DNA of 63,832 bases, filler included, from Reclinomonas americana ATCC 50394 (GCA_048213135.1; 15 parts of 15 records of this genome joined end to end with filler, not necessarily neighbours in it), one strand, 5' to 3'; counted from the whole stretch's first letter, positions 5,935 through 8,354 are shown. The notes: generated by a model not told the origin, from the letters alone. Numbers and translations are program-made.

Positions 5935-6093
5935 GAGGATGTCGCAGGTGAAGGGCGGCAATCGCATAGGAACGTGCTCTACCACTGAGCTACGTCGGCG
6001 ACAAAGTATGGAAGCCGACGGCGGGACTCGAACCCGCGACCACGCGTTTTGAAGACGAAGTAACGATATGCCATGGTCACCTGCTGGATCCTC
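5935..6093 (-). ncRNA. Permuted-tRNA-like / YrlA- or vault-like RNA, copy 1 (anticodon-like UCA)
   Basis: Minus strand: GAGGAT..GCAGGTGA ccat GGCA T ATCG TTACTT CGT CT TCA AA ACGCG TGGTC GCGGG TTCGAGT CCCGC CGTCGGC [14 nt] GCCGACG TA GCTC AGTGGTA GAGC A CG..CGAT TGCC GCCCT TCACCTGC..ATCCTC, then T4 and T9 tracts. Confidence 0.85.
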
Positions 6094-6325
6094 GAGTACA
6101 ATAGGTGGCTGGAGGCATGGGGTGCTTGAGCAGACATCTGCAGAGGATGCAGAGGAAATGACACACGCGAAATACCGAGGCTCAACAAGATCAGCTCAGC
6201 GCACCGCCGCATTCGACAAATCGCGCTCGACATCGATCCTCTCCTGGTTGTAGAACAAGGACTCAGACTCCATTCTCTCCCACTCGCATATCTGTGGAAT
6301 GCCTGAGGTCGCCAGGTGAAGCCAC

Positions 6326-6405
6326 AAAAGGAATTCGAACACGACCCAGATATCGGACAACTGAACACTGCAGGGCCTCTCTGCCACCGGCCACCCTGCT
6401 GCGGC
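6326..6405 (-). promoter_or_regulatory. Pol III A-box/B-box-like element followed by T4 (spacer 1)
   Basis: TGGCAGAGAGG (6376-6386) then GTTCGAATTCC (6330-6340) then TTTT. Confidence 0.45.
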
Positions 6406-6584
6406 GTTGTACCACACGACAAGGCGACTCACCTCGCCTCAGCGGGCGCTCGTGCATCAAGACAATGGCAGACACCTGTTGTTTGTTGGTGCATGAAATT
6501 GCAACTGCATATTATTGAGTGTCACCTCCCTCCCTTGCCCCCCAAGCCGACAAAAGGCGAAACCTGTGAGCCAAAAAGAAAGGT

Positions 6585-6742
6585 GAGGACGCCACAGGTG
6601 AAGTGCGGCGATCGTATAGGTTCGTGCACGTGCTCTACCGACTGAGCTACGTCGGCGACAAGGGACCGACGGTGGGACTTGAACCCACGACCCCGTGTTT
6701 AATGAGAAGGAACGATATGCCATTGTCACCTGCTGCATCCTC
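6585..6742 (-). ncRNA. Permuted-tRNA-like / YrlA- or vault-like RNA, copy 2
   Basis: Same architecture; T stem GTGGG/CCCAC (compensatory versus GCGGG/CCCGC), acceptor CGTCGGT [8 nt] GCCGACG, D arm TAGCTCAGTCGGTAGAGC; anticodon-like hairpin degenerate; T5 downstream. Confidence 0.8.
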
Positions 6743-6936
6743 GAGTATTGAAGGTGGTTGGAGGCATAGACTGCTTGAACTGATGTCAAGAAGAGTCAAA
6801 CGCAACGCATGCAGGTTTTACACAAGATCAACGTGCACAACATTGATCCTCTCCTGCTTGCACAACAAGGAATCGAGCTCCATTCTCCCCCCACTCGCGC
6901 ATCTGTGGAGCACACGGAAGATTGAGACCGCCAGAG

Positions 6937-7012
6937 AAAAAAGGCATTCGAACTCAACAAAGATTTCTTGGGCAACTCAACGCTGCATGCATGTGGCCAC
7001 TTTGCTGCTGCG
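6937..7012 (-). promoter_or_regulatory. B-box-like element followed by T6, A box degenerate (spacer 2)
   Basis: GTTCGAATGCC (6943-6953) then TTTTTT; homologous to the spacer 1 and spacer 4 elements. Confidence 0.35.
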
Positions 7013-7163
7013 ACACTCTACCGCATGACGTAGTGCACACGACACAGCGACTCACCTCTGCTCAGAGGGCACTCGTCCATCATGTCGATGATAGTTTGGT
7101 ATCATCATCACCTCCCACCGAAAATGCCAACAAAAACAGCCTGTGTTGCAAAAAAAGGAAGGG

Positions 7164-7312
7164 CGAGGACGTCACGGGTGAAGAGCGGCAATCGTAGAAC
7201 ATGCTCTACCACTGAGCTACGACGGCACAAAGCCGGCGGCGGGACTCGAACCTGCGACCATGCGTTTTAAAGACGAAGTAACGATGTGCCAAGGTCACCC
7301 GCTTGGTCCTCG
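7164..7312 (-). ncRNA. Permuted-tRNA-like / YrlA- or vault-like RNA, copy 3 (anticodon-like UUA)
   Basis: CGAGGAC..GCGGGTGA cctt GGCA C ATCG TTACTT CGT CT TTA AA ACGCA TGGTC GCAGG TTCGAGT CCCGC CGCCGGC [5 nt] GCCGTCG TAGCTCAGTGGTAGAGC A TG..CGAT TGCC GCTCT TCACCCGT..GTCCTCG; T7 at 7150-7156. Confidence 0.85.
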
Positions 7313-7642
7313 AGAATATTGGTGGCCGAAGGCATGGGCTGTATGAACTGATGTCAACAGTGCTTGCTGAAGAGACCATACACGTGTAGCGCATGCAGGA
7401 TTTACCGTAGATCAGCGTGCACGTCATTGATCCTCCCCTGCAGCTGCTTGCACAACAAGGCCGATGAGTTCCATTCCCCCCACTCGTCCATCTGTGGAGC
7501 CACGCACTGAACGCTGTCTGGCCTCTCTGTCACCAGCGCGAGCAGTAGTGCACAAGACACAGTGACTCATCGGAAGTTGGGTATCATCACCTCCCACCCA
7601 AATGCCGACAAAAAGAAAAGCCTGTGTTGCAAAAAAGGAGGG

Positions 7643-7792
7643 CGAGGACGTCACGGGTGAAGAGCGGCAATCATATATACGTGCTCTACCACTGAGCTAC
7701 GACGGCACAAAGCCGGCGGCGGGACTCGAACCCGCGACCACGCGTTTTACGGACGAAGGAACGATGTGCCAAAGTCACCCGCTTGGTCCTCG
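7643..7792 (-). ncRNA. Permuted-tRNA-like / YrlA- or vault-like RNA, copy 4 (anticodon-like GUA)
   Basis: Near-identical to copy 3; loop CC GTA AA; T6 at 7631-7636. Confidence 0.85.
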
Positions 7793-7986
7793 AGAATATA
7801 AGGTGGCCGAAGAAGGCATGGGCTGCTTGAACACAAGACGTGAACAGCGGCTGCAGACGCGCGTACATGCATGAAAGATTTACCATAGATCAGTGAGCAT
7901 TCGATTCGACATGAATCCTCCCCTGCTTACACATCAAGGCCAACGAGTTCCATTCCCCCACTCGTGCATCTCTGGAGTCAGCAGAG

Positions 7987-8068
7987 AAAAAAGACATTCG
8001 AACGCAACACAGATTTTTCCGGCAACTGAATCCTGCCTGGCCTCTCAGCCACTCAGCCCTGCTGCGGT
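7987..8068 (-). promoter_or_regulatory. Pol III A-box/B-box-like element followed by T6 (spacer 4)
   Basis: TGGCTGAGAGG (8041-8051) then GTTCGAATGTC (7993-8003) then TTTTTT. Confidence 0.45.
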
Positions 8069-8203
8069 GCTGTTCCACACGACACAGTGACTCACCTCGC
8101 CTCAGCAGCCGCTCGCCCATCATCATCACGCCAACGATAGACGGATATCACCTCCCACCCAAATACCGACAAAAACAAAAGCCTGTGCCAAATGAAAAAG
8201 GCA

Positions 8204-8354
8204 AGGACGTCACGGGTGAAGTGCGGCAATCGTATATACGTGCTCTACCGACTGAGCTACGCCGGCGGCAGACAACCGGCGGCGGGACTCGAACCCGCGA
8301 CCACGCGCTTATTAGACGAAGGAACGATGTGCCTTGGTCACCCGCTTGGTCCTC
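8204..8354 (-). ncRNA. Permuted-tRNA-like / YrlA- or vault-like RNA, copy 5 (anticodon-like AAU)
   Basis: Same architecture; acceptor CGCCGGT [8 nt] GCCGGCG (G-C where copy 1 has A-T); loop CT AAT AA; T5 downstream. Confidence 0.85.

Follow-up and report, generated by a model that had tools for sequence, protein, structure and literature searches.

The minus strand at positions 5925-8356 of the window, by which we mean the whole 63,832-nt stretch of DNA analysed here, carries an array of five repeated units at the place where an earlier note on this DNA had put them. Judged by their sequence, these are YrlA-type RNA genes, a form so far described only in bacteria and phages, and on balance we think that they are probably five diverged tandem genes for a 150-160-nt YrlA-type non-coding RNA residing in eukaryotic nuclear DNA.

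R1, a covariance model built from the five array units, matches each of them at 154-187 bits (Table 1), in agreement with the earlier claim of five minus-strand units; the next-best match in the window reaches 9.7 bits, and the other 14 contigs of the window hold no copy. Units are numbered here in the sense of transcription, unit 1 being the first; the earlier note began its count at the low coordinate. The array repeats every 480-650 bp and its spacers are conserved, and the repeat contains no ORF or bacterial gene remnant. Identity between copies is 80-94% in the RNA parts versus 63-76%, with many indels, in the spacers, unit 4 being the most diverged copy. Tandem Repeats Finder did not report the array (period at or above its 500-nt limit, diverged copies), and ARAGORN called no tRNA gene in the native sequence of the window. 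The internal boxes of the units run B before A, the reverse of a tRNA-derived SINE.

The window is composed of 15 small contigs joined by N44-TTAATTAATTAA-N44 linkers, so that no more than 3.7 kb of it is contiguous with the array. The array contig spans 5908-9641 (3,734 bases), and since unit 5 abuts its end at 5908 the array may go on beyond it. Two other ORFs are recorded for completeness: a 432-aa ORF in the window gave methyltransferase-like leads only (below 0.9) and no homologous protein at E <=0.001, and look-up of a MeaB-like ORF gave bacterial MeaB clusters.

Table 1 Features of the array contig, with the parts of the reference copy (window positions)
Feature	Position	Strand	Details
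Unit 1	8193..8356	-	R1 183.8 bits; Rfam YrlA 40.6 bits at 8239-8305; T run 8195-8199
Unit 2 (reference copy)	7634..7793	-	R1 187 bits; Rfam YrlA 39.4 bits; T run 7631-7636
Unit 3	7155..7313	-	R1 179.7 bits; Rfam YrlA 33.6 bits; T run 7150-7156
Unit 4	6575..6744	-	R1 153.9 bits; Rfam YrlA 33.2 bits; T run 6573-6577
Unit 5	5925..6095	-	R1 176.1 bits; Rfam YrlA 40.2 bits; T run 5913-5921
Unit 2 terminal stem, 5' strands	7761..7792	-	CGAGGAC 7786-7792; GCGGGTGA 7775-7782; TGGCA-C-ATCGT 7761-7771, one-base bulge
Unit 2 hairpin	7743..7755	-	3 bp, 7-nt loop: CGT-CCGTAAA-ACG
Unit 2 tRNA-like core	7683..7740	-	variable loop TGGTC; T arm 7719-7735; acceptor 3' strand 7712-7718
Unit 2 core, continued	7683..7711	-	cap loop 7707-7711; acceptor 5' strand 7700-7706; TA; D arm 7683-7697
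Unit 2 terminal stem, 3' strands	7643..7674	-	ATGATTGCCG, TCACCCGT, GTCCTCG
Conserved upstream block, units 2-5	7794..7840; also about 7314-7358, 6745-6790, 6096-6140	-	by alignment; GTTCAAGCAGCCCATGCCTYC..CCACC..TATATTC
Cys-rich 128-codon gene, 5 exons, 4 introns	8740..9409	-	ends 384 nt upstream of unit 1
Linker N44-TTAATTAATTAA-N44	5808..5907	.	with linker 9642-9741 bounds the array contig

Read 5' to 3', each unit starts with three helix strands and a short hairpin, followed by the variable loop (T/G)GGTC, a T arm of the form G(C/T)(G/A)GGTTCRAGTCCC(G/A)C and the 3' strand of the acceptor; then come a cap loop, the acceptor 5' strand, the dinucleotide TA, the D arm GCTCAGT(C)GGTAGAGC and three complementary helix strands. 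The acceptor comprises 7 bp and its cap loops measure 8, 5, 5, 8 and 14 nt in units 1-5. In all five units the T arm thus precedes the D arm, the two being separated by a closed acceptor-like stem-loop, and a run of 5-9 T begins 2-12 nt past the last helix, so that the rotated order of tRNA halves, the terminal helix and the oligo-T tract are present throughout, as had been claimed.

This 46-pair structure is borne by standard pairs in 96.5% of 228 cells, a share that falls to 25-49% when the partners are slid by 1-3 columns. Five pairs, one each in helix 1, helix 2, pair 27:43, the T stem and the acceptor, are changed on both sides, the same five for which compensatory changes had been listed, and only 2 of 500 shuffles reach that number. 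The terminal stem comprises 25 pairs in three helices, with 94-100% of cells paired and two pairs changed on both sides, and is also recovered by RNAalifold and RNAfold. The fold of unit 2 has a z score of -3.53 (0/200 shuffles as stable) and that of unit 5, for which the coordinates used were 3 nt short, a z score of -1.89 (8/200).

The T stem is GCGGG/CCCGC in three units, GTGGG/CCCAC, and hence compensated, in unit 4, and carries one mismatch (A:C) in unit 3; pair 27:43 of unit 3 is T:A in place of C:G, and units 2 and 3 share a T:C mismatch in the acceptor. The 3-bp/7-nt hairpin upstream of the T arm is found in four of the five units, a 2-nt deletion having abolished it in unit 4, where CGTG/CACG pairs in its place. 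In unit 2 this hairpin and 2 bp of CG:CG (7741-7742 with 7680-7681) form a nicked look-alike of an anticodon arm. Positions U8, A14, G15, G18G19, A21, C48 and TTCRA are invariant in all five units; the 15:48 Levitt pair is kept as G15:C48 and the variable loop as 5 nt. U8, A14, G18G19, G15:C48 and the TTCRA T loop are the nucleotides that build the elbow of a tRNA. This modelling shows that each unit RNA can fold as a tRNA-like module set on a 25-bp three-helix stem.

Among 4227 Rfam families, YrlA (RF02553) is the only one that matches all five units (33.2-40.6 bits, E 6.5e-7 to 9e-5), in keeping with the YrlA-like architecture proposed in the earlier note. The match lies below the cut-off of 69 bits and covers model positions 24-84 of 114, that is, the tRNA-like core only, so the protein-binding stem is not recognised by the Rfam model. 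At gathering thresholds the window gave no Rfam match, and neither Y_RNA (RF00019) nor vault RNA (RF00006), both of which the earlier note had proposed to search for, is among the 13 matches with E <=10 in 5900-8450. The T and D stems of the units are those of the YrlA consensus (GCGGG/CCCGC and GCUC/GAGC).

In the reciprocal search, also among the checks proposed earlier, R1 matched YrlA-like RNAs over their full length 44 times, with scores of 50-85 bits, and these matches fall in 42 of the 67 loci (prokaryote, viral and metagenome) searched. The bacterial loci had been selected using patterns derived from the units, which makes the likeness of the core partly one by construction. The likeness to YrlA reaches both strands of the terminal stem. 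A capped acceptor of 6-7 bp is present in 60 of 69 prokaryote loci that share the core pattern, of which 6 of 20 tested exceed the Rfam YrlA cut-off, and among 76 bacterial and viral units the small hairpin recurs at the same offset in 29 and its 2-bp closure in 63. Bacterial arrays have periods of about 110-230 nt, with several R1 matches per locus (e.g. L052), and bacterial YrlA genes likewise have oligo-T past the terminal stem (L038). Of the pattern scans, one returned mostly ordinary tRNAs, with YrlA-like units in L107, L108, L109 and L160; a scan of the sequence collection with a spacer motif gave 29 matches, equal to chance expectation, one with a short leader motif gave more than 120, neither being informative, and T-loop plus D-arm motifs lay downstream of the scan matches in 0 of 149 loci.

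YrlA RNAs are known from Salmonella Typhimurium, Mycobacterium smegmatis and more than 250 bacteria and phages (Chen et al. 2014, PMC4201824; Wang et al. 2018, bioRxiv 10.1101/312249). With them the units share the order of stem strand, short hairpin (the 'V' of Chen 2014), variable loop, T arm, closed acceptor, D arm and stem strand, as well as the bases of the tRNA tertiary contacts, ends paired in a long stem, and tandem copies. An acceptor of 7 bp is also found in M. smegmatis YrlA, where RNase P cuts the RNA and CCA is added (PMC4201824; bioRxiv 10.1101/312249). In contrast to YrlA, the stem of the units consists of three near-perfect helices and is 15-20 nt longer, its sequence lacks GNCGAAN0-1G and is left unmatched at Rfam scores of 33-41 versus 69, the array period with its conserved spacers exceeds the bacterial one, and neither rsr nor rtcB lies near the array, whose neighbour gene has spliceosomal-type introns.

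Likeness in detail is seen with a set of actinobacterial-type RNAs from Streptomyces (L046, L108, L160), Actinomadura (L107), Acidimicrobiia (L006, L109) and a metagenome contig (L070), which R1 matches over their full length at 60-78 bits. In both groups (T)TMCTTC immediately precedes the 3-bp/7-nt hairpin, the 5' strand contains GGTG, the inner helix opens with GGC, and the 3' strand reads GCCG.ACTT.A.C. The actinobacterial-type RNAs differ in having GGUGCG(A/C)AGG where the units have GGUGAC and three variable bases, in a two-helix stem with an irregular middle, and in their setting: their genomes are gene-dense, with 61-69% GC, and a TROVE gene, where one was seen, lies beside them. The L070 relative is immediately upstream of an ORF with a TROVE domain (PF05731, E 1.1e-15).

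Metazoan Y RNAs (vertebrate Y1-Y5, nematode CeY and sbRNAs; Kowalski and Krude 2015, PMC4726728) resemble the units in being eukaryotic, about 100-150 nt long and present as several diverged paralogues, with a one-base bulge in an end-paired stem and an expected oligo-U tail. The units, however, have no Rfam Y_RNA match at E <=10 and no GGUCCGA motif, and metazoan Y RNAs, as presented in the available text of that review, have no tRNA-like module; none are known there from plants or fungi.

Of the readings in which the array is not a working eukaryotic gene family, the one that survives best, at a fairly low probability, is that it is bacterial or phage Y RNA DNA, present either as a chimera or contaminant or as a recently transferred, amplified and functionless insert. 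The closest relatives are bacterial by any test, tandem Y RNAs (2-5) occur in bacteria, as in L052, the oligo-T tracts are shared with bacterial copies and would also fit a bacterial intrinsic terminator, and the evidence of linkage extends over just 3.7 kb, with unit 5 reaching the contig end. Yet the repeat lacks any trace of a bacterial ORF or gene, its period of about 500 is not that of bacterial arrays, no rsr adjoins it, and GC (0.54-0.56) and a T-over-A strand bias run on from the intron-bearing gene into the array. That the RNA parts are better kept than the spacers after 6-20% divergence also speaks against this reading and points to selection in this genome.

The array contig looks eukaryotic from its sequence. 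In the Cys-rich neighbour gene, four short GT..AG introns (73, 84, 60 and 66 nt; GTGCGT/GTGGGT ... YAG) restore a frame of 128 codons where the unspliced sequence has stops in all frames. A model with three introns and 150 codons is also open, but its first exon is doubtful and it was set aside for the refined four-intron model. Pfam searches with the unspliced ORF pieces gave no match; the product is perhaps PLAC8-like in look (W.GLCC, FLPCY, CSCC). The GC content of the contig (0.555) and its GTGCGT donors match those of the other contigs, on which LisH_PAC1+WD40 and REJ/GPS pieces occur. The earlier argument against contamination, that an intron gene lies on the same contig, draws on the 3.7 kb that are linked and does not extend to the whole window.

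It is improbable that the units are instead RNA-processing signals at which RNase P and RNase Z would cut free snoRNA-like RNAs encoded in the spacers, comparable to tRNA-snoRNA dicistrons or MALAT1-mascRNA. An acceptor of 7 bp is among the known determinants for RNase P (PMC4201824), and the spacers have conserved C/D-box-like blocks, with three repeats giving weak matches to C/D snoRNAs at corresponding places (E 0.9-7), but such matches are no better than chance and only one repeat has CTGA as its D box. Moreover, a run of at least five T ends every unit ahead of the spacer and would stop Pol III, and such a signal does not need a compensated terminal stem of 25 bp.

Slightly harder still to credit is a decaying tRNA-derived tandem repeat, satellite-like or the remnant of a dimeric tRNA, that has no RNA function. 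The mismatched acceptor pairs of units 2 and 3, the T-stem mismatch of unit 3, the lost hairpin of unit 4, the missing upstream block of unit 1 and the confinement of known copies to this one array would suit decay; the five pairs changed on both sides, the 96.5% pairing, the better preservation of RNA than of spacer, the retention of all tertiary-contact bases in every unit and the extension of YrlA likeness into both stem strands do not.

Least likely of all is that the units are true circularly permuted tRNA genes, whose RNA ends would be cut and ligated at 28/29 to form a circle, which RNase P and RNase Z would open at the cap loop before CCA is added to yield 72-73-nt tRNAs. Such genes are found in Cyanidioschyzon merolae, Ostreococcus/Micromonas, the Bigelowiella nucleomorph and Thermofilum pendens (Soma 2014, PMC3978253), and the units resemble them in the 3' half upstream of the 5' half, the 7-bp acceptor, an intervening loop of 5-14 nt (1-74 in known cases), the downstream T-stretch and upstream AT-rich patch (PMC3978253), and a eukaryotic setting. 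A eukaryote also possesses splicing endonuclease and ligase, and the parts of the units, if rotated, would give a cloverleaf. Ends joined at 28/29 complete an anticodon stem of 5 perfect bp, and ARAGORN calls all five units tRNAs when they are rotated in silico at that point (aat, gta, tta, cat, tca). The same rotation, however, when applied to 76 YrlA-like units from bacteria and viruses, yields an ARAGORN tRNA in 66 of them, with scattered anticodons, so the call is a trait of the family. A strict bulge-helix-bulge (BHB) scan, in line with the earlier report of none, found no motif at the junction (0, 0, 1, 3 and 0 per unit, none conserved, against a shuffle average of 1.16, without a positive control), and the junctions given in the available text of Soma 2014 are 20/21, 37/38, 50/51 and 59/60, not 28/29 (PMC3978253). 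One body would also carry five different and incoherent 'anticodons', two of them reading stop codons, position 33 is C, not U, in units 2 and 4, and the long, conserved and compensated stem far exceeds what a BHB would need. The bacterial rotation control and the BHB scan led us to drop this reading, which is unlikely because the anticodon-arm hairpin is itself a YrlA trait and the junction lacks a BHB.

If the array is a family of YrlA-type genes working in a eukaryote, each unit would be transcribed separately from the conserved block just upstream, which is a candidate promoter for units 2-5; the block upstream of unit 1 differs and is not conserved with it. The oligo-T runs, which bacterial YrlA genes carry as well, would fit transcription by RNA polymerase III, which would halt there and leave a U tail; the order of B box before A box is wrong for a type-2 Pol III promoter. 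The unit RNA may then act as an adaptor, as Y RNAs do, its terminal stem holding a Ro60/TROVE-type or other protein, for which the invariant GGUGAC and the bulged helix GGCA(C/U)AUCG/CGAUUGCC are candidate contact sites, and its tRNA-like elbow recruiting a tRNA-binding enzyme. With its 7-bp acceptor it could be a substrate of RNase P or RNase Z and of the CCA-adding enzyme, by analogy with M. smegmatis YrlA. As to origin, a bacterial, possibly actinobacterial-type, Y RNA gene may have moved into the eukaryote, or the two may share common descent.

A further-reaching proposal, which we put forward only tentatively and hold to be rather doubtful, is that a eukaryote, possibly outside animals, uses tRNA-shaped bacterial-type Y RNAs as Pol III-made partners of Ro60/TROVE, which would be the first of YrlA type in a eukaryote. 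The TROVE partnership put forward in the earlier note finds no support in this DNA: neither the 3.7-kb contig nor the 64-kb window as a whole yielded a TROVE gene (tblastn best E 0.29; 147 ORFs scanned), no rsr gene adjoins the array, and GNCGAAN0-1G, the proposed Ro60/Rsr contact near the 5' end, occurs in 0 of 5 units. As a control, 23 of 74 fetched bacterial and viral units have this motif, which is therefore not universal among the relatives either. The three bases that follow GGUGAC vary between copies (CAA, TTT, CTT, AAT, CAT). In a bolder sub-case, RNase P and RNase Z may open some of the copies, which might even be converted by rotation into tRNA-like molecules; this is conceivable because a eukaryote owns tRNA-splicing endonuclease and ligase. 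Wang et al. 2018 raised this step for YrlA without being able to place it in bacteria (bioRxiv 10.1101/312249).

A limited literature search found no eukaryotic YrlA-type case. In the available text of the sources cited, YrlA-type tRNA mimics are described solely in bacteria and phages (PMC4201824; bioRxiv 10.1101/312249), and eukaryotic Y RNAs solely in animals and without a tRNA-like module (PMC4726728). The interest of the array depends on its eukaryotic origin holding. Were the partnership with Ro to prove true, bacterial and eukaryotic Ro particles would be linked, either through gene transfer or through descent. Should the array prove to be a functioning gene family of a eukaryote, a structured RNA gene would have crossed domains or would be older than thought, a second and independent setting would be at hand for finding the binder of the conserved tRNA-like elbow, and the descent of Y RNAs from dimeric or permuted tRNAs would become testable in a cell that has tRNA splicing machinery.

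Five copies of an RNA unit lie in tandem on the minus strand of one contig, numbered here in the sense of transcription, with spacings of 563, 480, 569 and 649 bases between successive copies, the fifth running up to the end of its contig. A covariance model made from the five units, R1, matched only these units when searched against the window (154–187 bits), the next best match scoring 9.7 bits. Tandem Repeats Finder did not report the array in the window, owing to the divergence of the copies and a period at least as long as the program's 500-nt limit. Each unit opens with the 5' strands of three helices, in the order CGAGGAY, GCRGGTGA and TGGCA(C/T)ATCGT, followed by T(C/A)CTT, a hairpin whose 3-bp stem carries a 7-nt loop (of the form CGT-CTNNNAA-ACG) and CG. 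The variable loop, (T/G)GGTC, and the T arm lead into an acceptor whose 7-nt 3' strand is joined to its 5' strand by a cap loop of 8, 5, 5, 8 or 14 nt; TA, the D arm GCTCAGT(C)GGTAGAGC, A and CG come next, and 4–13 unpaired bases precede the three complementary helix strands of the 3' end. All five units carry an oligo-T run of 5–9 T located 2–12 nt downstream of the last helix strand. The five-copy array described in the earlier note is thereby confirmed.

Coordinates of the array and associated features in the window
Feature	Position	Strand	Remarks
Array of five RNA units	8356 to 5925	minus	150–170 nt per copy
Conserved spacer block	8051-8112, 7553-7596, 7060-7115	minus	C-box-like TGATGA, D'-like CTGA
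Additional T run	7992, 6942		~100 nt beyond the spacer block
Cys-rich 128-codon gene, four introns	8740-9409	minus	same contig as the array, 384 nt upstream of unit 1
MeaB GTPase ORF	39827-40483	+	PF03308, E 8e-77
LIS1/PAC1-like gene	61858-63086	+	LisH_PAC1 then WD40 repeats, in three frames; GTGCGT donors like those adjoining the array
Linkers, N44-TTAATTAATTAA-N44	5808-5907, 9642-9741 and 12 more places		

To assess pairing, we named a structure of 46 pairs in eight helices, on which standard pairs fill 96.5% of the 228 cells, versus 25–49% when partners are slid by 1–3 columns. Both sides have changed at five pairs, and two out of 500 column shuffles attained as many. Helix 2 has A:U in place of G:C, and C:G is replaced by U:A in helix 1, at pair 27:43, in the T stem and in the acceptor. 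These are the same compensatory changes that had been listed from inspection of the sequence. RNAalifold recovered the three-part stem, T arm and acceptor unaided, and RNAfold gave z = -3.53 for unit 2 (0/200 shuffles as stable) and z = -1.89 for unit 5, whose sequence was cut 3 nt short (8/200). Against the fold stand a U:C mismatch in the acceptor of units 2 and 3, an A:C mismatch in the T stem of unit 3, and the loss of the small hairpin from unit 4. Identity between copies is 80–94% in the RNA parts (10 pairs, the unit 5 piece being incomplete) and 63–76% in the spacers (6 pairs), where indels are plentiful; the RNA part is therefore better kept than its surroundings.

In their native order, the units yielded no tRNA call by ARAGORN and no Rfam match at gathering thresholds. 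With E-value reporting, the only Rfam family to match all five was YrlA (RF02553), the bacterial and phage Y RNA with a tRNA-like module in rotated order, at 40.6, 40.2, 39.4, 33.6 and 33.2 bits (E 6.5e-7 to 9e-5); none of these scores reaches the family cut-off (69), and the matches are confined to the tRNA-like core, model positions 24–84 of 114. Y_RNA, vault and ordinary tRNA were not among the Rfam matches to the array under this reporting. The core pattern of the units was found at 69 prokaryote loci, 60 of which have a capped acceptor of 6–7 bp, the remaining nine being mostly Aquificales tandem tRNAs; the RF02553 cut-off was passed seven times, in 6 of the 20 core-pattern loci tried. 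Reciprocally, R1 was given 67 of 80 loci, with 13 tandem-tRNA loci and viral look-alikes excluded, and returned 44 full-length matches of 50–85 bits spread over 42 of the 67. Because the loci were picked with unit-derived patterns, their similarity to the units in the core is partly a product of that selection, and the Rfam match is the independent test. The units have the defining architecture of YrlA, as proposed on first inspection. We therefore regard the array RNAs as of the YrlA kind and place them outside RF02553 itself, because they neither reach the Rfam cut-off nor carry the Ro60 motif considered below. No eukaryotic YrlA came up in the literature searched. Four prokaryote loci (L052, L041, L030 and L031) have 2–3 YrlA-like units each, 110–230 nt apart; tandem Y RNA paralogues are therefore common in bacteria.

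The small hairpin and two CG:CG pairs were first interpreted as an anticodon arm interrupted at 28/29, which would make the units permuted tRNA genes. Rotation in silico at this position produced ARAGORN tRNA calls for all five units (aat, gta, tta, cat and tca), but the same rotation produced calls in 66/76 capped-acceptor units from bacteria and viruses, with more than 25 different anticodons among them, so the calls lose their force as evidence and this reading was abandoned. Of these 76 units, 63 have the 2-bp closure and 29 a 3-bp/7-nt hairpin at the same offset, with the CTNNNAA loop form in 13 of the 29. A strict bulge-helix-bulge scan, run with no permuted-tRNA positive control, found 0, 0, 1, 3 and 0 motifs per unit, none at the junction and none common between units, as the earlier note's failure to find such a junction had indicated; shuffled units average 1.16. 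The permuted tRNA junctions given by Soma 2014 (PMC3978253) are 20/21, 37/38, 50/51 and 59/60. The small hairpin of the units is instead a YrlA trait, the stem-loop named 'V' by Chen et al. 2014 (PMC4201824). Across the fetched loci with bacterial YrlA-like RNAs (L001-L183), 'V' resembles an anticodon arm with a nick at 28/29: its 3-bp stem covaries, its 7-nt loop is often CUNNNAA, and 2 bp formed with the strand that follows the D arm close it. This likeness agrees with the proposal that YrlA arose from a dimeric tRNA.

Bacterial YrlA binds Ro60/Rsr, its TROVE-domain partner, through the stem, and Chen 2014 (PMC4201824) singles out the 5'-strand motif GNCGAAN0-1G, similar to GGUCCGA of vertebrate Y RNAs. 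This motif is found in 0/5 units and in only 23/74 of the fetched bacterial or viral relatives. When the units are aligned with YrlA-like RNAs of actinobacterial type, the features in common are (T)TMCTTC ahead of the hairpin, GGTG, GGC at the opening of the inner helix and the 3' strand GCCG.ACTT.A.C; where Streptomyces has GGUGCGAAGG, the units have GGUGAC and then three bases that vary between copies. One of these actinobacterial-type relatives, L070, sits immediately upstream of an ORF with a TROVE domain. The stem of the units has an additional outer helix and is almost perfectly paired. It invariably contains a single bulged base, C or U, in GGCA-N-AUCG/CGAUUGCC, and this helix may be similar in form to the bulged helix bound by Ro60 in animal Y RNAs. 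Neither tblastn (best E = 0.29) nor a scan of 147 out of 175 ORFs of at least 130 aa, which gave a Pfam family for 10 of them, revealed a TROVE gene in the window; as this covers 64 kb of the genome, the negative carries little weight.

The window comprises 15 contigs of 2.0–7.7 kb joined by linkers, and gene neighbourhood across these joins therefore carries no meaning; the DNA physically linked to the array is the 3.7 kb of 5908-9641. Within it, as first noted, lies an intron-bearing gene, which is Cys-rich. Removal of introns of 73, 84, 60 and 66 nt, one of which comes after a 13-nt exon, restores its frame, while the unspliced gene has stops in all three frames. The introns start with GTGCGT or GTGGGT and finish with YAG after pyrimidine-rich tails, and GTGCGT donors are also found on other contigs. 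Pfam returned nothing for the unspliced pieces; the motifs W.GLCC, FLPCY and CSCC look PLAC8-like. The minus-strand T-over-A bias is continuous through this gene and the array, the array repeat holds no bacterial gene remnant, and the contig's GC content, 0.555, is similar to the 0.56–0.61 of other contigs, on which eukaryotic domains (LisH_PAC1 with WD40, REJ/GPS) occur. Elsewhere in the window, a MeaB ORF has nearest protein clusters that are all bacterial (Actinomycetota, Pseudomonadota, Planctomycetota), a pattern that may be normal for the family or may hint that the assembly contains DNA of bacterial type.

A block of 45 nt directly upstream is conserved ahead of units 2–5 and not of unit 1. 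The separate spacer block gives weak Rfam C/D snoRNA matches (E 0.9–7) at homologous positions in three repeats, and because an additional T run follows it, a second small RNA gene in each repeat is possible.

The earlier note's interpretation, a Pol III-made RNA partnering a TROVE protein, stands in part: YrlA-type architecture, no bulge-helix-bulge junction and an intron-bearing neighbour hold, while the Ro60 motif and a TROVE gene were not found in the units and window, respectively. The fold, its conservation, the resemblance to YrlA and the oligo-T runs are shown by the data; beyond these, each unit would be transcribed separately, with transcription ending at its T run, and the predicted product is an RNA of 150–160 nt that begins near CGAGGAY and finishes with U4-6. 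With the B box ahead of the A box, the order is the reverse of that in an internal Pol III promoter. Having a 7-bp acceptor, the RNA may be cut open by RNase P or RNase Z and then gain CCA, for which M. smegmatis YrlA offers a precedent (Chen 2014, PMC4201824). The unit RNAs would work like YrlA, as Y-RNA-like adaptors in which the stem would hold a protein and the tRNA elbow may recruit a tRNA-binding factor.
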